IMG/VR virus record: IMGVR_UViG_3300017613_000793
Location: 5,195 to 69,194 of that record
Direction: 5' to 3' (one strand)
Origin: a virus
DNA: 64,000 nt
Shown here piece after piece: positions 15,450 to 53,926 of this stretch. The notes below the pieces were generated by a model. It made no database searches. It worked only from the letters and a program-made list of their open reading frames with translations, and was not told where the DNA came from. Positions within the stretch are counted from its first letter, which is position 1. The number at the start of each line of letters is the position of its first letter. The translations under genes were made by a program, and so were the position numbers.

Positions 15450-15479
15450 AGTATACCACAAAACATATTCTTTTGTCAA
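15450..15479 (-). promoter_or_regulatory. sigma70-type promoter, 18-bp spacer, extended -10
   Basis: TTGACA(15479-15474)-18-TATACT(15455-15450), preceded by TGG. Confidence 0.75.
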
Positions 15480-20190: not shown

Positions 20191-20363
20191 ATCTGCACCT
20201 TTATTTCTACATAGACTTGGTGCATATCATTGTAATGGGTACAGAAAGCCTTGAGTCCTTTTGCCCGGTGTGCATCTAACATGTCTTGAGCAAAGTGATT
20301 ATCATTTGTTTCATAAACATACCGACATTCTACCCCGGCATACCATTTGTTTTCTCTCTTCAT
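20187..20363 (-). CDS. Small hypothetical protein (58 aa, not in the ORF track)
   Basis: RBS AGGAG; MKRENKWYAG...; ATGA overlaps at both ends. Confidence 0.65.
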   Translation of the reverse strand: MKRENKWYAGVECRYVYETNDNHFAQDMLDAHRAKGLKAFCTHYNDMHQVYVEIKVQI

Positions 20364-20836
20364 TTTTTGTCTCCTATATTATATTCTTTCCAAGTCTTGT
20401 CCCAAACTTCCTGGAGAAGTCTACAATTATTCCTAAGTGACTTGCTTCTGGAAAGGACAACTCTTCTGACACTACCTCTTCTCTCTTCCATACCAAGAGT
20501 CCAACCACTGGGTGAAGTCCAGGAACCAGGAAGTAGAGCCTTGAGTGAACTGTCAGTAGTACATTTCCAACTCATGGTCTCAGTCTTGGAAACAACTCTC
20601 TCAAGTCTAACACTCTTCCAAGCCCAAGGTCTGAGTGCAAGAGCAACAAGAGCACTGGAGAGATTCATATCAGTCAGCTTCAGTTCCCAAGTTCTGTTGT
20701 TCCATTCTTCCAGTTCCTGCTCACTACTCTTCTTAGGAAGAGCACTCATTTTGGCTTGGCTCTTCATCCATCTCTTCAGTTCCTTGCTAGGCTTGCTGAG
20801 ACTTTTCTTACTCATCATCCTTGCTTGCTTATTCAT
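20360..20836 (-). CDS. Hypothetical basic Ser/Trp/Lys-rich protein in compositionally odd DNA
   Basis: RBS GAGGT and ATGA coupling to the next gene; no Phe or His residues. Confidence 0.5.
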   Translation of the reverse strand: MNKQARMMSKKSLSKPSKELKRWMKSQAKMSALPKKSSEQELEEWNNRTWELKLTDMNLSSALVALALRPWAWKSVRLERVVSKTETMSWKCTTDSSLKALLPGSWTSPSGWTLGMEERRGSVRRVVLSRSKSLRNNCRLLQEVWDKTWKEYNIGDKK

Positions 20837-20900
20837 AATTTACCTCTACTTATAATACGACTCAACAGGGTATTTTATTCAATATTGCCAAAATAAAAAT

Positions 20901-20971
20901 AGGTTAGGAATGCCGGAGACCTTGAGCGGTCTGGTTAGAAACATACTTTTTATTTGTGGCATTCCCAACCT
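20901..20971 (-). terminator. Terminal 14-bp stem of the ncRNA cassette followed by a U-rich tract
   Basis: AGGUUGGGAAUGCC/GGCAUUCCUAACCU enclosing hairpin AGACC-GCUCAA-GGUCU, then AUUUUUAUUUU. Confidence 0.55.
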
Positions 20972-21015
20972 TTAAAAAAATATTTATAGGAGAAAATCAG
21001 AAAGCTTAAATATAT

Positions 21016-21097
21016 TGCAGGGAGTGATGGGATTGGATACCCACAACCTTCCGGGTCTGATGCCGGATGCTCTACTAGCATTTGAGCTACACTCCCT
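21016..21097 (-). ncRNA. Aberrant tRNA-like RNA (8-nt anticodon loop, 8-nt T-loop)
   Basis: Acceptor GGGAGUG/CACUCCC, D-stem GCUC/GAGC, anticodon stem UCCGG/CCGGA with loop CAUCAGAC, T-stem GUGGG/CCCAU with loop UAUCCAAU; no encoded CCA. Confidence 0.75.
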
Positions 21098-21156
21098 AAT
21101 CAGCACAAGGTCTTGTCTCATAAGACTCACCTGCACTGTCCATGGCTTGTAAAAAT

Positions 21157-21190
21157 GTGAGGAAGAGCCGGAGGTGGAACCCTTCCCCAC
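21157..21190 (-). ncRNA. Hairpin presenting an anti-Shine-Dalgarno loop
   Basis: GUGGGGAAGGGUU/GGCUCUUCCUCAC stem (several G-U pairs) with loop CCACCUCC. Confidence 0.6.
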
Positions 21191-21236
21191 GGAGACAAAA
21201 AAATGATTAACAAATTTTTTAAATTAAAATTACGGT

Positions 21237-21309
21237 CCGGGTGTCTTGCTCCCCAGTGAAGCAAGAATTTTTTCGTAGTGTTATACCCACCACCTGGATG
21301 TTCACCCGG
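21237..21309 (-). ncRNA. Small three-way-junction RNA
   Basis: CCGGGUG/CACCCGG closing stem, hairpins GUGGUG/CACUAC and UCUUGCU/AGCAAGA. Confidence 0.55.
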
Positions 21310-21349
21310 CAAAAATTTATCAAAGGAGTTTACTATGCAAAATTATATT

Positions 21350-21765
21350 GACACTGTGAGACTTGGACAGACAGTTGAACATTCAGTATTCAAGTCGGCT
21401 ACTCGGTGACAACGAACTTCACAGCCACTCTATGGCTCCATCCATTGGGCTTGGATAATGACTCCAGCCTTACCATACCTAGTTTCAACTTTTTGTAACC
21501 GGGACCACCCGGACCTTGCTCACTCACCACAGGAATGCCCTAGACAACTTGTTCCAGAACAAACGGAGTATGTGTATCTTGTAGACAATCCAAGTATTTT
21601 CGTGTGAGAAGCCGTGGCTCCAATTCATGATATGGCCTTCTCATGGTCTTGTGGGTTGCTTACGCTGAAGCTTCATAGCAGTGACCCCTCACCACGTCTG
21701 CTTCCCCAACGTTCTTGTATCAGTCACAGCACCTCAGCTATGACCCTCACACGTCTCACAGCATC
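21350..21765 (-). ncRNA. Large (416 nt) structured non-coding RNA of unknown class
   Basis: 13-bp terminal helix GAUGCUGUGAGAC/GUCUCACAGUGUC, numerous internal hairpins, G-U pairs favouring the minus strand, no minus-strand ORF, promoter upstream. Confidence 0.72.
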
Positions 21766-21813
21766 CAAACAAAGACAAGGTATTAAGCCCTGTCTGTGTT
21801 ATCTACTTATTAA

Positions 21814-21826
21814 GTTGTCAAAGAAC
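21814..21826 (-). promoter_or_regulatory. boxA-like antitermination element
   Basis: GTTCTTTGACAAC about 25 nt after the predicted start site; resembles rRNA-leader boxA (GYTCTTTRANAA). Confidence 0.6.
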
Positions 21827-21855
21827 TCAGTCACTCAATCCTGGTGACCATTATC

Positions 21856-21885
21856 AGTTTACCAAAAAACTATTTCTCTTGTCAA
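21856..21885 (-). promoter_or_regulatory. Promoter of the ncRNA cassette
   Basis: TTGACA(21885-21880)-18-TAAACT(21861-21856), preceded by TGG; embedded in the 3' end of the sigma gene. Confidence 0.75.
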
Positions 21886-22659
21886 GCACTTTTTTATAAA
21901 AGAACTAAATCTAAATCTATCTGTTGATTCTCTATTAATAGTAATGTCCCAATTCTTTTTTGGAACCATCTTCTTTACTTTCTTATAACACTTACTCTGA
22001 CTCCAATAATGAACTTCAACCTCTTCCATTTTAATTGATTCAGGTTCAAGTTCAGGTTCAACCCATTCTTCTTTTGGCCTTAATGTAATTTCCTTTTTAT
22101 AACAGTTGTTTTGATTCCAATAATGAACCTCAACTTGTTCCATGGTCTCATCTAAATCCTGTGAAGGTTTTGATTTTGGTACAAACTTGTCTCTGATGTT
22201 TCGTATTATCTGAGCAGTCCATCGTTGACTATACCCTAAAACTTTTCCAGCTTCCTCTGTGGACATACCATCAAACACAACCAACTGAACTAAACGCCTT
22301 TGCTTTGGTGTCAACTTGTCTAACAAGTTTTGTTTCTGTTGGAACAATTGTTTAAACTCAAATATATCCATAGGAGTTTTTTTATCTTGCGTATCTTTAA
22401 AAAATGCTTTCTCATGGTCCAACAATCTTCTTTGTTGGTATTTCCATCTAATATGGTCCACCACTGCCCGGTCTGCAATTGTGTAAGCATAAGTTTCAAG
22501 AGTGCTCCTACCCTCAAACTTATCCAACGCCTCAACCAATCTCACATATGCATCAGATATAACATCTTCAATAACTTGGTGTGGTCTACCTGCAAGTTTA
22601 CCATAAATATGCCCACGCATTTTCTGTAGAACCTTATCTGAAATTTCAAACATACTCAT
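21859..22659 (-). CDS. sigma-70 family (ECF-like) RNA polymerase sigma factor with C-terminal duplicated motif
   Basis: Region 2 EDVISDAYVRL...KFEGRSTLETYAYTIA...VDH.R; region 4 LTPKQRRLV.L....GMSTEEAGKVLG. Confidence 0.85.
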   Translation of the reverse strand: MSMFEISDKVLQKMRGHIYGKLAGRPHQVIEDVISDAYVRLVEALDKFEGRSTLETYAYTIADRAVVDHIRWKYQQRRLLDHEKAFFKDTQDKKTPMDIFEFKQLFQQKQNLLDKLTPKQRRLVQLVVFDGMSTEEAGKVLGYSQRWTAQIIRNIRDKFVPKSKPSQDLDETMEQVEVHYWNQNNCYKKEITLRPKEEWVEPELEPESIKMEEVEVHYWSQSKCYKKVKKMVPKKNWDITINRESTDRFRFSSFIKKCLTREIVFW

Positions 22660-22674
22660 GCCTTGAAATTTTTT

Positions 22675-22750
22675 TGGAGCGTCCTGTCAGATTTGAACTG
22701 ACACCCTCAGGTTGGAAGCCTGGAATGCTACCGTTAAACACCAAGGACGC
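22675..22750 (-). tRNA. tRNA-Gly(TCC)
   Basis: Cloverleaf, anticodon loop CTTCCAA, encoded CCA. Confidence 0.9.
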
Positions 22751-22751
22751 T

Positions 22752-22825
22752 TGGCACTGACTGTGGGATTTGAACCCCTTCTCCCGGTAGACAGCCGGGT
22801 GTGTTACCATTACACTACAGCCAGT
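22752..22825 (-). tRNA. tRNA-Asp(GTC), non-canonical
   Basis: Anticodon loop CTGTCTA; extended acceptor helix, short T-stem, G discriminator plus CCA. Confidence 0.7.
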
Positions 22826-22828
22826 GTT

Positions 22829-22904
22829 TGGCAGGTCCGTCTGGATTTGAACCAGAGGCCACGGTTTTGGAGACCGTGATGTTAAGCCACTACACCACAG
22901 ACCT
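22829..22904 (-). tRNA. tRNA-Trp(CCA)
   Basis: Cloverleaf, loop CTCCAAA, G73 plus CCA. Confidence 0.9.
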
Positions 22905-22907
22905 GTG

Positions 22908-22980
22908 CGGAGCATAGGGGAATTGAACCCACTAATACAAGGTTGAAAGCCTTGTGTCCTAACCATTAGACTAATGCTCC
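22908..22980 (-). tRNA. tRNA-Glu(TTC)
   Basis: Cloverleaf, loop CTTTCAA; bulged T-stem; no encoded CCA. Confidence 0.8.
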
Positions 22981-22981
22981 A

Positions 22982-23058
22982 TGGTGGAGACGGTGGGACT
23001 TGAACCCACAACTTCCTGCTTGCAAAGCAGGTGCTCTCCCAAATTGAGCTACATCCCC
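22982..23058 (-). tRNA. tRNA-Ala(TGC)
   Basis: Cloverleaf, loop TTTGCAA, G3:U70 pair, encoded CCA. Confidence 0.93.
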
Positions 23059-23069
23059 AAAAATATTAT

Positions 23070-23144
23070 TGGAGGGTTGGAGTGGATTTGAACCACAATC
23101 TTCCGAGTTCACAGCCCGGTGCTCTACCTTTGAACTACCAACCC
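23070..23144 (-). tRNA. tRNA with GTG anticodon (His-like, lacks G-1:C73)
   Basis: Loop CTGTGAA; acceptor GGGTTGG/CCAACCC, U discriminator plus CCA. Confidence 0.8.
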
Positions 23145-23146
23145 AT

Positions 23147-23222
23147 TGGTGGGAAAGACAAGACTTGAACTTGCAACCCCTGGCTCCCAAAGCCAGTGCT
23201 CTACCAATTGAGCCACTTTCCC
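23147..23222 (-). tRNA. tRNA-Pro(TGG)
   Basis: Loop TTTGGGA; acceptor GGGAAAG/CTTTCCC, A73 plus CCA. Confidence 0.88.
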
Positions 23223-23225
23223 TGT

Positions 23226-23300
23226 TGGCTGTGGTGGATAGATTTGAACTATCAACACCCTGTTTAACAGACAGGTGCTCTACCATTGAGCTACACCACA
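23226..23300 (-). tRNA. tRNA-Asn(GTT)
   Basis: Loop CTGTTAA, G73 plus CCA. Confidence 0.92.
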
Positions 23301-26244: not shown

Positions 26245-26274
26245 ATATTACCAGAGGTGAGAATATTCTGTCAA
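26245..26274 (-). promoter_or_regulatory. sigma70-type early promoter, 18-bp spacer
   Basis: TTGACA(26274-26269)-18-TAATAT(26250-26245), preceded by TGG. Confidence 0.72.
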
Positions 26275-52082: not shown

Positions 52083-53926
52083 TCTGGATTTAATTTCTTC
52101 ACAGCATTCACCGTGTTTAATACATTACGTTCTTCATATGGATTAAAGTTCCATATCTTCTTGAATGCTTCAACACCCTTGCTCCATTCCCGGTCCTGCT
52201 TCTGTCTATCAAAAGCTTTAAACACCGCTCCATGCTTGTGGTAAAACGTGGTTGCATAGGTCTTAACAATGTCATGTCCTGATAACCGTATTCTTAACAA
52301 ATGGTCCTCATCTGCCTGATACCTGGGAGCAAGATTTCTAAATGGTCCAATTTCCTCAATACATTCCATACTCACCAACAATGCTGAATAATCCCCGGCA
52401 ATCATTATCTGAATTGGCTTCTCAGCATTATACACTTTATCCTGAAAATGTAATTGGTCTGTTTCATGTTTGTTGACAACCTGCCCGGTCACTGCGTATG
52501 CTTTCCGTCTCTGAATTGTGTCAACCAGAGTATCTATATATGTGGAACTCAGTATAATGTCATTGTTGCACAACAACACATAATCATACCCTTCTGCCCA
52601 TGCCTTCTTCATTGCAAGGTTCCACGCTTCAGGCACGTTCATGGACCTGGACAAAAAGTCCACATTATTGTCCAGAAGCCATTCCTGTGTACCGTCCTCA
52701 CTCTCATTATCTATCACAAAGATGTCATAGTCATGCTTGCTTCTTACAGAATCAATACACTGCTTTGTTAAGTCCAAAAAGTTATACGTCAATATATTAA
52801 CAAGAACCTTCTTTGACTCTAACATCTGCTCATTTATTGATGTCAAAACTATTTCCGGGTCTATATTTAAACACTGAGGACTCCGTGTGGTTTCCTTCTC
52901 CTGCATGTTCCGTCCTGGTAAGCACTTGAGTGTCCACCAACATCTGCTACGTTCTCCAATTGGACACGGTATCTGAACACAAGAAACCTTCTCATAATCC
53001 TCAACCCAAATCTCACCATCTACACTTCCGCACACCATCACTGCTCTCTTCTTCAAAGCACCTGCAAGATGATATACATAACTGTTTGGAGATACCACAA
53101 TATCACATTGCTCAACAATGGCTCCTAATTGCTCCATGTTAAATTCATATTTATCATCTATCTTTCTATCAAGTATTACAAACTGTGGTCCATCTTCCGG
53201 GAAAAGTCCCATAAGCTTTTCCATATGTGGATATGTCCGACTTACATTGGAACCATCCAACTGTAATCCAATTACTGGCCTATCCTTATCATAATCCTGT
53301 GCAACCAACCACTCTTGTGCCCACACTTTTTCATCATTAGTCACCACATAGGTTGGTGTTTTATTCTCCAGGAATAACCCCATTTGCTCCAAATATATTG
53401 AAGCCCTATTCTTGATAACTTTACCATCACGCTCAAAGTCTTTAGTTTCAACACGGAACTCAAGATTGTTTACGTCAATCTTAATGTCCGGCACAGCTTT
53501 CAACATTGCTTCCTGGCCTGTGTAAACCCGGTCAACATATGGGTTGTGTTTCAGGATTCTCTCATAACCCTTTTTAACAGCGAACCACACTTCAACATCT
53601 TCTCCATATTTGTACTTGAGTGCTTTAGCTATTACAGAAGCCATGAGGACATCACCACGTCCGTTCATGTCTCTGATTATACCTACAGAAAACTTCCCTT
53701 TCTTCTTATGTGCAAAATCAAATGAACCTCTTGCCATAATGCTATCTGGATGAATAAAATATTTAGGGTCTATATTGAACCGCTTTATTAATTCATCTGA
53801 TACAAATTGCCCTGGTTTGAATTTCATTGTTACATTTCCTTTTGAATAAAGTTGGCTTGGAATATTAGACCGCATTCTTCTACCAGACACTGTTGCACCA
53901 CGCATAAATTTCATTCTTTCTCCCAT
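52043..53926 (-). CDS. GT9 (heptosyltransferase-like) and GT2 glycosyltransferase fusion
   Basis: GDVLM, NPYVD, HLAGAL (GT9); DNESEDGT, NNDI, DED (GT2). Confidence 0.88.
   Translation of the reverse strand: MGERMKFMRGATVSGRRMRSNIPSQLYSKGNVTMKFKPGQFVSDELIKRFNIDPKYFIHPDSIMARGSFDFAHKKKGKFSVGIIRDMNGRGDVLMASVIAKALKYKYGEDVEVWFAVKKGYERILKHNPYVDRVYTGQEAMLKAVPDIKIDVNNLEFRVETKDFERDGKVIKNRASIYLEQMGLFLENKTPTYVVTNDEKVWAQEWLVAQDYDKDRPVIGLQLDGSNVSRTYPHMEKLMGLFPEDGPQFVILDRKIDDKYEFNMEQLGAIVEQCDIVVSPNSYVYHLAGALKKRAVMVCGSVDGEIWVEDYEKVSCVQIPCPIGERSRCWWTLKCLPGRNMQEKETTRSPQCLNIDPEIVLTSINEQMLESKKVLVNILTYNFLDLTKQCIDSVRSKHDYDIFVIDNESEDGTQEWLLDNNVDFLSRSMNVPEAWNLAMKKAWAEGYDYVLLCNNDIILSSTYIDTLVDTIQRRKAYAVTGQVVNKHETDQLHFQDKVYNAEKPIQIMIAGDYSALLVSMECIEEIGPFRNLAPRYQADEDHLLRIRLSGHDIVKTYATTFYHKHGAVFKAFDRQKQDREWSKGVEAFKKIWNFNPYEERNVLNTVNAVKKLNPDWETKVREPWAKS

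Follow-up and report, generated by a model that had tools for sequence, protein, structure and literature searches.

Within the window, by which is meant the whole 64,000-nucleotide stretch of DNA analysed here, an uncultured marine-sediment phage carries a gene-free stretch of about 1 kb, hereafter the cassette, in which folded RNAs alternate with A/U-rich spacers. Read from the minus strand, its parts have the order of an RNA operon: a host-type promoter is followed by a 416-nt RNA, spacer C, tRNA-like RNA 2, spacer B, a terminator-like hairpin, tRNA-like RNA 1, spacer A, and a long hairpin (Table 1). The long hairpin, which would end the operon, was missed by the terminator scan because its loop is too long. 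The three spacers are 37-43 nt long, against 1, 3, 2, 1, 11, 2, and 3 nt for the spacers of the phage's real tRNA array. As read from the sequence, U7 stands before each hairpin and a U-run after it; this layout is that of Hfq-binding modules. DNA contigs from public runs (three DNA runs of one study, which may be the source sample) match 20967-21261 and 21251-21449 with 0 differences; because they are identical over these pieces of the cassette, they supply no variants for comparison.

Table 1. Features of the cassette, listed from promoter to putative operon end; positions are those of the window, and z is the fold z-score.
Feature	Position	Strand	Remarks
RNA-operon promoter	21856..21885	(-)	TTGACA, 18 nt, TG-n-TAAACT; 10/12 matches + TG; putative start near 21848
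Leader with small hairpin (21795-21773)	21766..21848	(-)	z -1.87
Folded RNA of 416 nt with a closing terminal helix	21350..21765	(-)	z -2.46 minus, -1.20 plus; no Rfam family
Spacer C	21313..21349	(-)	RNA bears CAU 21337-21335, CUCC 21328-21325
tRNA-like RNA 2	21233..21312	(-)	three-way fold: 7-bp closing stem, 6-bp hairpin, 9-bp hairpin; z -3.92 minus, -1.15 plus
Spacer B	21191..21232	(-)	free 3' end CAUUUUUUUGUCUCC; CAU 21206-21204, CUCC 21194-21191; hairpin immediately after
13-bp hairpin, terminator-like	21147..21190	(-)	loop CCACCUCC, then AUUUUUAC; terminator scan (21190-21157); z -3.12
Small stem-loop	21101..21138	(-)	z -1.48, weak
tRNA-like RNA 1	21019..21096	(-)	RF00005, 44.2 bits
Spacer A	20976..21018	(-)	CUCC 20992-20989, then UAUAAAUA + U7; no anti-start in register
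Long branched hairpin	20885..20975	(-)	14-bp closing stem 20971-20958 / 20914-20901, then U-run; z -5.42; inverted repeat I2; putative operon end

The promoter of the cassette belongs to a small class. The pattern TTGACA-N15-17-TGNTANNNT has four matches, all on the minus strand, where 0.34 would be expected, and four were reached in 0 of 100 shuffles; the cassette promoter aligns with the promoters preceding genes 26227 and 15431, which serve two coding operons, to give a 3-member intergenic class. All 89 called genes are likewise on the minus strand, none of the four class matches is on the plus strand, and a sigma-70 promoter scan found no plus-strand site in 20856-21860, although the phage's own sigma factor may use other promoters. 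Within the spacers the scans list no promoters, and by eye there are only weak -10/-35 hexamers. Fold z-scores favour the minus over the plus strand in all three elements folded on both strands. The minus strand is supported in silico as the predicted transcribed strand, and its RNA would display anti-Shine-Dalgarno (anti-SD) and anti-AUG sequence between stable folds, as the initial annotation had proposed.

tRNA-like RNA 1 scores 44.2 bits against the tRNA family, above the gathering threshold of 29, in searches of 1 kb and of 10 kb, and is absent from the gathering search of the whole window. Its Infernal alignment places one inserted base each in the anticodon loop and the T loop, giving 8-nt loops; its D loop has no GG and no CCA is encoded, whereas seven of the eight canonical phage tRNAs end in CCA. 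ARAGORN does not call it, and it departs from a decoding tRNA, which needs an anticodon loop of 7 nt, a standard T loop, and GG in the D loop. tRNA-like RNA 2 is called by neither ARAGORN nor Rfam; when the spacers and other folds were compared with Rfam 15, the tRNA match was the only one, and the rest lay far below thresholds (E 1.3-6.9). The elements upstream of the spacers are tRNA-like and probably non-decoding. Spacers B and A each lie behind such an element and before a hairpin with a U-tail or U-run, a layout of the 3'ETS type in which the second terminator is putative.

On the plus strand the spacers read like translation starts. Spacer C gives AAAGGAGTTTACTATGCAAAATT from 21322, with GGAG at 21325-21328 and an ATG at 21335-21337 that opens a 24-codon frame; spacer B gives GGAGACAAAAAAATGATTAACAAA from 21191, with an ATG at 21204-21206 that opens an 18-codon frame; and spacer A gives AGGAGAAAAT from 20988 and has no suitably placed start codon. 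The three linkers singled out by the initial annotation are thus found where it placed them, the last without an ATG. In the RNA, spacers B and C each display CAU...CUCC, which is anti-start plus anti-SD, and spacer A displays CUCC only. All four G's of spacer B(+) and all four of spacer C(+) lie inside GGAG and ATG. A partition function computed for a 966-nt minus-strand transcript predicts CUCC to be unpaired with a probability of 0.97 in spacer C, 0.96 in B, and 0.83 in A, and the hairpin loop CCACCUCC with 1.00; the boxes are left unpaired in both MFE and ensemble folds. At 0.83-0.97 unpaired, the spacer boxes are predicted to be open for seed pairing with the SD, the start codon, or both. 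Other segments are predicted to be paired: the 3' part of spacer C pairs with the middle of spacer B (inverted repeat I5), and tRNA-like RNA 2 is bracketed by a 13-nt inverted repeat that is 85% complementary (P(unpaired) ~0). The minus strand of the cassette also contains five GGAG words, and the hairpin at 21147..21190 holds the sole CACCUCC of this strand in the whole 64 kb.

Whether such boxes exceed chance depends on the null. In 5000 dinucleotide shuffles of single spacers, the probability of GGAG-N5-10-ATG, a motif definition chosen after the data were seen, is 0.0002-0.0012 for spacer B and 0.0010-0.0012 for spacer C; with a loose definition of the ribosome-binding site (RBS) it is 0.054 and 0.040. 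Shuffling the whole cassette (2000 dinucleotide shuffles) gives a mean of 0.27 such motifs and P(≥2)=0.033, or P=0.10 under the loose definition; the GGAG count of the cassette is 7 against 2.66±1.51 in shuffles (P=0.0115). The probability of GGAG per spacer in single-spacer shuffles is 0.094, 0.027, and 0.031; for CUCC in all three long spacers the product of such probabilities is 8e-5 (dinucleotide shuffles) or 3e-6 (mononucleotide shuffles). The 1-kb cassette has 7 copies of CUCC, and the same strand of the 64 kb has 89. The boxes are non-random with respect to spacer composition and borderline with respect to whole-cassette shuffles, and are unlikely to be due to chance.

The initial annotation had also called for pairing against shuffled backgrounds. 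Of 87 phage start regions, the three spacers pair at ≤-12 kcal/mol with 17, 10, and 21, against 6.4±3.8, 4.9±3.0, and 5.3±3.1 in 150 shuffles, and shuffles as extreme in this count have frequencies of 0.02, 0.06, and 0/150. The number of paired start regions is thus above shuffles but the energy of the best target is not: the best duplex was equalled in 0.09, 0.13, and 0.08 of 120 shuffles for A, B, and C, and that of their 20-24-nt cores in 0.41, 0.11, and 0.19 of 150. Complementarity to a particular target beyond composition was not found in either comparison (shuffle fractions 0.08-0.13 in the first, and 0.11-0.41 for the cores). In silico, the spacers pair with phage start sites in general, with no standout target gene.

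The start regions quoted in the initial annotation for genes 26227, 18358, 20363, and 18749 read as it gave them, and its matches for spacer B hold in part. Genes 26227, 20363, and 18358 are the best three targets of spacer B among 89 and of its core among the 87 start regions, and a 12-mer, GGAGACAAAAAA, is exact in spacer B, 18358, and 20363; but their energy does not rise above shuffles, and the 12-mer is one of six plus-strand places in 64 kb, one of them in the cassette, at which 12-mers are shared with any start region. The proposed likeness of spacer C to gene 18749 fared worse, that gene ranking 5/89 for the spacer and falling outside the top 6 for its core, and the suggested preference for early genes reduces to a weak contrast of the 13-27 kb (early) block with the rest (0.07-0.11). 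GGAG stands upstream of 45 of 87 phage genes, and GGAGAC-type sites precede 4 of 89, all at 15.4-20.4 kb. In spacer C the distance from GGAG to ATG is 6; in spacer B it is 8, which is used by 0/45 of the GGAG-type genes of the phage, so that pairing of spacer B requires a bulge. In an A-rich genome almost any start region will pair well with the complement of a ribosome site, and for that reason attractive target matches carry little weight unless shuffled controls accompany them. Words that resemble an SD or are rich in A have low complexity.

Relatives of the cassette itself were not found in the sets searched: a 'distant' blastn search of 20800-21900 against 50,697 phage records gave no match, and blastn and nhmmer against 30 and 143 fetched loci gave nothing better than E=0.10. 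Matches in IMG/VR to a 16-base loop pattern numbered at least 113, were attributed to chance, and yielded no cassette when screened by blastn/nhmmer; two stricter loop patterns had 0 matches each in IMG/VR. For the neighbouring genes, single-protein IMG/VR scans with the sigma, 158-aa, and 415-aa genes gave no confirmed relative, and a comparison of the sigma protein with 5.8 billion proteins returned nothing but that protein. Fifteen other proteins are related to the 415-aa neighbour, with eight of these sharing 40-65% identity, and lie on contigs of 1.4-10.9 kb. Scans based on alignments yielded 13 loci from IMG/VR, the best at 30% identity; 17 from metagenomes, of which the top two (58% and 46%) are short; and one from GTDB at 29%. 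One relative, L015 (46% identity in the 415-aa neighbour), covers the junction; its sigma gene directly adjoins that neighbour and the cassette is absent.

The explanation favoured here, tentatively and as somewhat short of probable, is that the spacers carry generic anti-RBS boxes on processed spacer RNAs and are not gene-specific guides. Host RNA polymerase would read the cassette as an early operon whose output is folded RNAs only, namely the 416-nt RNA and the two tRNA-like RNAs. Cutting of the RNase P or RNase E type at the tRNA-like elements would then free spacer B and spacer A, each joined to its own hairpin, and the 416-nt RNA, with spacer C left as a tail at its 3' end. The B and A products would each be a small RNA in which a free pyrimidine seed and a U-run precede a hairpin and a U-tail. 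By pairing with the GGAG-type SD and the start codon, the released RNAs would reduce the translation of many messages. A point against this proposal is that a generic anti-RBS RNA would also strike the phage's own messages.

A rather unlikely alternative is that the spacers are inert, serving only as A/U-rich leaders and trailers at which RNases can enter between the folded RNAs, with the look of a ribosome site arising by chance or as a relic of once-inverted intergenic DNA. The borderline whole-cassette shuffles, the failure of any single target to beat shuffles, the 12-mer start-region matches at five other places in the window, and the low complexity of SD-like and A-rich words are all compatible with inert spacers, and absence from L015 implies that the cassette is dispensable. 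Such spacers would leave unexplained the values of about 0.001 each for B and C in spacer shuffles, the confinement of all their G's to GGAG and ATG, and the presence of CUCC in every long spacer; moreover, 1-11-nt spacers suffice for the phage's real tRNAs. The opposite extreme, an array of guides in the strict sense, with spacer B directed to 26227, 18358, and 20363 and spacer C to 18749, is highly improbable. It draws on the ranking of the three targets of B, on the position of 26227 as the first gene behind a promoter of the cassette's class, and on the restriction of GGAGAC-type sites to four genes; but shuffles match the best-target energies (B 0.13/0.11, C 0.08/0.19), and neither the rank of 18749 nor the early-versus-rest contrast favours it. 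Since the best target never beats shuffles, the matches to 26227, 18358/20363, and 18749 are no evidence of specific guides, and the array of target-specific guides envisaged in the initial annotation is not supported.

It is also very improbable that an antisense transcript carries two micro-ORFs, of 18 and 24 codons, with the plus-strand signals as their real starts. GGAG lies at a working distance ahead of each ATG (8 and 6 nt), A-rich codons follow, and of seven plus-strand GGAG-N5-10-ATG sites these two alone are in A/T-rich non-coding DNA. A start-site matrix with fixed spacing, derived from the 89 starts of the phage, gives 9.9 to the site at 21335 (real starts have a median of 10.5) and places it second among 63,969 positions; the site of spacer B receives -10.8 (rank 11,281 of 63,969), a value that misjudges it because its spacing is 8 and the matrix spacing is fixed. 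Against micro-ORFs stand the minus-strand position of every called gene, the lack of a plus-strand promoter in the cassette by sigma-70 scan and of plus-strand members of the promoter class, the lack of a start codon behind the GGAG of spacer A, and the disuse of spacing 8 by the GGAG genes; the two frames are no longer than expected free of selection, and each continues into sequence antisense to folded RNAs. It is quite improbable that the pyrimidine boxes and U-runs act in cis or through proteins, by tertiary pairing with GGAG loops of the 416-nt RNA, through an RNase III-type helix of spacers C and B around tRNA-like RNA 2, or as stabilising Hfq- or S1-type sites. The paired 13-nt inverted repeat around tRNA-like RNA 2, the five GGAG words of the minus strand, and the U7 and U-run flanking each hairpin would suit such a role, but the boxes are unpaired in MFE and ensemble folds, and a CAU at RBS spacing from CUCC in two spacers would have no explanation.

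The generic boxes invite comparison with several known systems. In the C-rich sRNAs of Bacillota (RsaE/RoxS and the hairpins of RNAIII), pyrimidine boxes bind the SD of numerous mRNAs; the motifs are UCCC or CCC, placed in the hairpin loops of chromosomally encoded sRNAs, unlike the boxes of the cassette, three of four of which are in linear spacers and two of which have an anti-start codon in register. The c4 antisense RNA of phages P1 and P7 is described as blocking translation by pairing around the RBS, its precursor being cut by RNase P (PMC12197685, PMC11143913). Like c4, the cassette would encode a phage RNA with the complement of an RBS, which is here predicted; in the cited descriptions c4 has one target operon (ant) and complementary sequences in loops, whereas the boxes of the cassette are generic and occupy the spacers that separate tRNA-like folds. 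No relation between the two was found in sequence or in Rfam. In the account of 3'ETS-leuZ of E. coli, the spacer that follows a tRNA is excised from a polycistronic precursor and base-pairs with the help of Hfq (PMC8166272); the cassette spacers also lie behind tRNA-like elements in one putative precursor. As that account presents it, 3'ETS-leuZ sponges RyhB and RybB, not ribosome-binding sites, and follows a real tRNA, whereas the cassette spacers follow tRNA-like elements. The RegB endoribonuclease of T4 is described as targeting the GGAG of early messages and switching them off (PMC1702504); RegB in that description is a protein nuclease and the cassette a putative source of GGAG-masking RNA, so that the analogy is functional only. 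A review (PMC12197685) refers to a table of 38 phage sRNAs that have no described function. A limited literature search found neither arrays of anti-RBS spacers between phage tRNA-like elements nor an RNA-based general shut-off of translation start sites.

An extended form of the favoured explanation, which is improbable as a whole, would make the early operon one long precursor in which the tRNA-like folds act as cutting handles, and in which two seed-plus-terminator sRNAs, together with the 416-nt RNA and its 16S-like pyrimidine tail, jointly make the GGAG and the start codon inaccessible on early or host messages; it would be an arrayed RNA counterpart of the T4 RegB switch. To our knowledge, few small RNAs of lytic phages have known targets. 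If the boxes do not work, the cassette is a warning case on target matches offered without shuffled controls; if they do, they would give phages a cheap, protein-free means of timing gene expression, and would account for the presence of tRNA-like and ornate RNAs beside phage tRNA arrays.

The window covers 64,000 nt of an IMG/VR virus record 69,194 nt in length. The minus strand carries all long reading frames of the window, and a rough gene call gives 89 genes, all on that strand. The window proteins share <30% identity with those of cultured phages, and the public DNA runs containing window sequence, in which the cassette is identical to that of the window, are labelled as marine sediment or seawater metagenomes. 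The cassette, ~1 kb without a credible gene between an ECF-type sigma factor gene and a 158-codon gene, consists of putative folded RNAs and the A/U-rich linkers between them, spacers A, B, and C. Its tRNA-like folds are trailed by A/U-rich segments of 42-43 nt, whereas the canonical phage tRNAs, seven of eight with an encoded CCA, lie 1-11 nt apart. The tRNA-like RNA 1 has one extra base in each of the anticodon and T loops (8-nt loops), a D loop without GG, and no encoded CCA; ARAGORN makes no call on this gene (21096-21019), which is probably not a decoding tRNA, and an Rfam search finds no other family match in the cassette. A 13-nt word in the T arm of tRNA-like RNA 1 (21037-21049) recurs, with 12 of 13 positions identical, in tRNA-like RNA 2 (middle hairpin, 21283-21295), which hints that the two folds may be related.

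Features of the RNA cassette, its promoter class, and neighboring genes (window coordinates)
Feature	Position	Strand	Remarks
Eight tightly packed tRNA genes	22675-23300		array just upstream of cassette
ECF-type sigma factor gene	21859-22659	minus	
Intergenic promoter class	15450-15479, 21856-21885, 26245-26274	minus	TTGACA, 18 nt, TGGTA-A/T-A-N-T, upstream A-tract
Sigma-70-type promoter	21885-21856	minus	perfect TTGACA, 18-nt spacer, TG-n-TAAACT
Leader	after promoter	minus	
416-nt fold	21765-21350	minus	z -2.46 minus vs -1.20 plus
Spacer C	21349-21313	minus	
Three-way tRNA-like fold (tRNA-like RNA 2)	21312-21233	minus	z -3.92 minus vs -1.15 plus
Spacer B	21232-21191	minus	
13-bp hairpin, loop CCACCUCC, U-tail	21190-21157	minus	terminator-like by scan
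Weak stem-loop	between 13-bp hairpin and tRNA-like RNA 1	minus	
tRNA-like gene (tRNA-like RNA 1)	21096-21019	minus	Rfam 44.2 bits
Spacer A	21018-20976	minus	
Long branched hairpin, then U-run	20975-20885	minus	z -5.42
158-codon gene	20360-20836	minus	

Everything computable favors the minus strand as the RNA strand, because the promoter class, the match to the tRNA model, the better z-scores of the folds, the hairpin resembling a terminator, and the uniform gene orientation point the same way. The pattern TTGACA-N15-17-TGNTANNNT would be expected 0.34 times in the window but matches four times, always on the minus strand (four or more in 0/100 shuffles). Three are intergenic and can be aligned with one another, including an A-tract upstream of the -35; since the other two, which precede genes 26227 and 15431 (genes are named by position), align with that of the cassette, the cassette promoter is of the same class as those of two coding operons. 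Gene 26227, described in the initial annotation as the first early gene, is indeed the first gene behind a promoter of this class, with a terminator-like hairpin just upstream. In the two coding operons the Shine-Dalgarno (SD) sequence begins only ~8-10 nt past the -10 box; the fourth match, at 52816-52846, is intragenic. The 158-codon gene contains a promoter-like site (20378-20405, minus; TTGGGA, 16 nt, TATAAT) whose -10 box ends ~3 nt ahead of the SD of gene 20363, one of two genes holding the 12-mer matched by spacer B.

The three spacer words originally singled out as resembling translation starts are found where reported, as are plus-strand frames of 18 and 24 codons, and the four gene starts compared with them read as quoted. 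In the minus-strand RNA, spacer C reads ...CAUAGUAAACUCCUUUG..., spacer B ...CAUUUUUUUGUCUCC, ending at the hairpin foot, and spacer A ...UUUUCUCCUAUAAAU...; CUCC in all three and CAU in B and C are the complements of a plus-strand GGAG and ATG. The proposal that this RNA would expose anti-SD/anti-AUG sequence between folds agrees with the fold ensemble predicted for the full 966-nt transcript, in which the CUCC boxes are mostly unpaired (probability 0.97 in C, 0.96 in B, and 0.83 in A). In the same predicted fold the CCACCUCC loop has an unpaired probability of 1.00, and a further CUCC, located in the tRNA-like gene's acceptor stem, is fully paired. A 13-nt inverted repeat with 85% complementarity is predicted to join the 3' portion of spacer C to the central portion of spacer B, so that the free part of spacer B would be only its last 15 bases, CAU to CUCC. 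CACCUCC occurs just once on the minus strand of the window, in the loop of the 13-bp hairpin (21157-21190).

GGAG-N5-10-ATG occurs at 7 plus-strand and 67 minus-strand sites of the window; two of the seven plus-strand sites lie in the cassette, and none of the other five is in A/T-rich non-coding DNA. A whole-window null is unfair here because the plus strand elsewhere is G-poor antisense of genes. The 1,005-nt cassette, when dinucleotide-shuffled 2000 times, contains a mean of 0.27 such sites (P(≥2) = 0.033; 0.10 with a looser SD definition) and 2.66 ± 1.51 GGAG words against the 7 present (P = 0.0115). When each spacer is shuffled separately (5000 shuffles), the P values of GGAG-N5-10-ATG are 0.0002-0.0012 (B) and 0.0010-0.0012 (C), 0.0012 and 0.0046 with borders extended by 6 nt, and 0.054 and 0.040 under a loose definition (GGAG, GAGG or AGGA; 4-10 nt; ATG, GTG or TTG). 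For GGAG alone, P in A, B, and C is 0.094, 0.027, and 0.031 with dinucleotide and 0.041, 0.008, and 0.009 with mononucleotide shuffles, and on the plus strand of both B and C all four G's fall in GGAG or ATG. An accident of composition is an unlikely source of the RBS-like make-up of B and C, at a strength of ~1e-2 to 1e-6 depending on the share of the motif definition counted as post hoc. Chance is probably not the origin of the CAU...CUCC predicted to be exposed in these A/U-rich spacers. Real micro-ORFs in the 18- and 24-codon frames would also account for start-like sequence: scored with a matrix derived from the 89 start sites of the phage, site 21335 reaches 9.9 (real-start median 10.5) and ranks second of 63,969 plus-strand positions. 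Site 21204, in spacer B, has a low score owing to its spacing of 8, which 0 of 45 GGAG genes use. Promoter scans list no plus-strand promoter inside the cassette (the phage's own sigma factor may use another promoter type), the frames are no longer than unselected ones, both run into antisense of the folded RNAs, and spacer A has no start codon; for these reasons micro-ORFs are improbable.

The spacers could alternatively be an array of guides, each for chosen genes, as the gene-specific matches of the initial annotation implied. RNAduplex energies of spacer RNA against the start regions of called genes, with dinucleotide shuffles of the spacer as control, indeed place genes 26227 (-20.6 kcal/mol), 20363, and 18358 as the first three targets of whole spacer B among 89 start regions, but its best energy is equalled or bettered in 13% of 120 shuffles; gene 18749 is among the start regions matched by spacer C, but ranks only 5th, and the best target of C is equalled or bettered in 8% (A, 9%). 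Cores of 20-24 nt, set against 87 start regions and 150 shuffles, give best-target fractions of 0.41 (A), 0.11 (B), and 0.19 (C); at neither length does a best target exceed shuffles (0.08-0.13 whole; 0.11-0.41 cores). The CCACCUCC hairpin loop likewise does not exceed them (0.44 for the best target, 0.087 for the count). Plus-strand words of at least 12 bases common to any start region are found at six window positions, spacer B included; those of at least 13 bases are found at two, neither in the cassette. Pairing is broad instead: 17 (A), 10 (B), and 21 (C) of the 87 regions pair with the cores at -12 kcal/mol or better, against 6.4 ± 3.8, 4.9 ± 3.0, and 5.3 ± 3.1 in shuffles (as extreme in 0.02, 0.06, and 0/150), and mean energies are as extreme in 0.02, 0.033, and 0/150. 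GGAG is found at the start sites of 45/87 genes, at 5-7 nt in 35 of the 45. Broad pairing above shuffles, without a better best target, indicates that the spacers resemble the complement of the phage's consensus start site rather than guides to chosen genes, and the strict guide array is very doubtful. All three spacers lean weakly towards genes in the 13-27 kb block (A 0.08, B 0.07, C 0.11), and GGAGAC-type sites, in 4/89 genes, all lie within 15.4-20.4 kb, which is suggestive for spacer B, not more.

No cassette homologue was found in phage records, fetched viral/metagenomic loci, or IMG/VR pattern scans. The 415-aa gene neighboring the cassette has metagenomic relatives at 40-65% identity; of two short loci fetched from among them, one, L015 (46% identity in this gene), spans the junction: a homologous, shorter sigma gene (E 3e-9; 389-943) abuts the 415-aa gene (931-2178), with neither the RNA cassette nor the window's two small genes between them. 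Judged from the one relative seen, then, the cassette is either an accessory insertion or has been lost there. In a distant IMG/VR relative (L003:8900-14062; 24% identity), four N-free stretches, 263-1786 nt long, lack 60-codon ORFs on both strands, which could reflect a recoded stop codon or non-coding DNA.

Behind the tRNA-like folds, each trailer closes with U7, a CUCC box, and a G+C-rich hairpin that has a U-tail. Such an arrangement would fit a small RNA whose seed is free and which carries a terminator, placed after a processing handle, with the spacers serving as generic anti-RBS seeds, a role that we infer tentatively, as possible rather than probable. In the leuZ tRNA precursor of E. 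coli, the 3' external transcribed spacer is described as excised and acting by pairing with the help of Hfq (PMC8166272); the likeness would be a spacer behind a tRNA or tRNA-like element. Also among the nearest described cases is c4, the antisense RNA with which phages P1 and P7 cover a ribosome-binding site and whose precursor is an RNase P substrate (PMC12197685, PMC11143913); the cassette RNA would likewise cover an RBS. T4 RegB, reported to inactivate early messages by cutting GGAG (PMC1702504), is a functional parallel only. If real, the cassette would be a variant of RBS-masking antisense RNA and spacer-derived sRNA, both known kinds.
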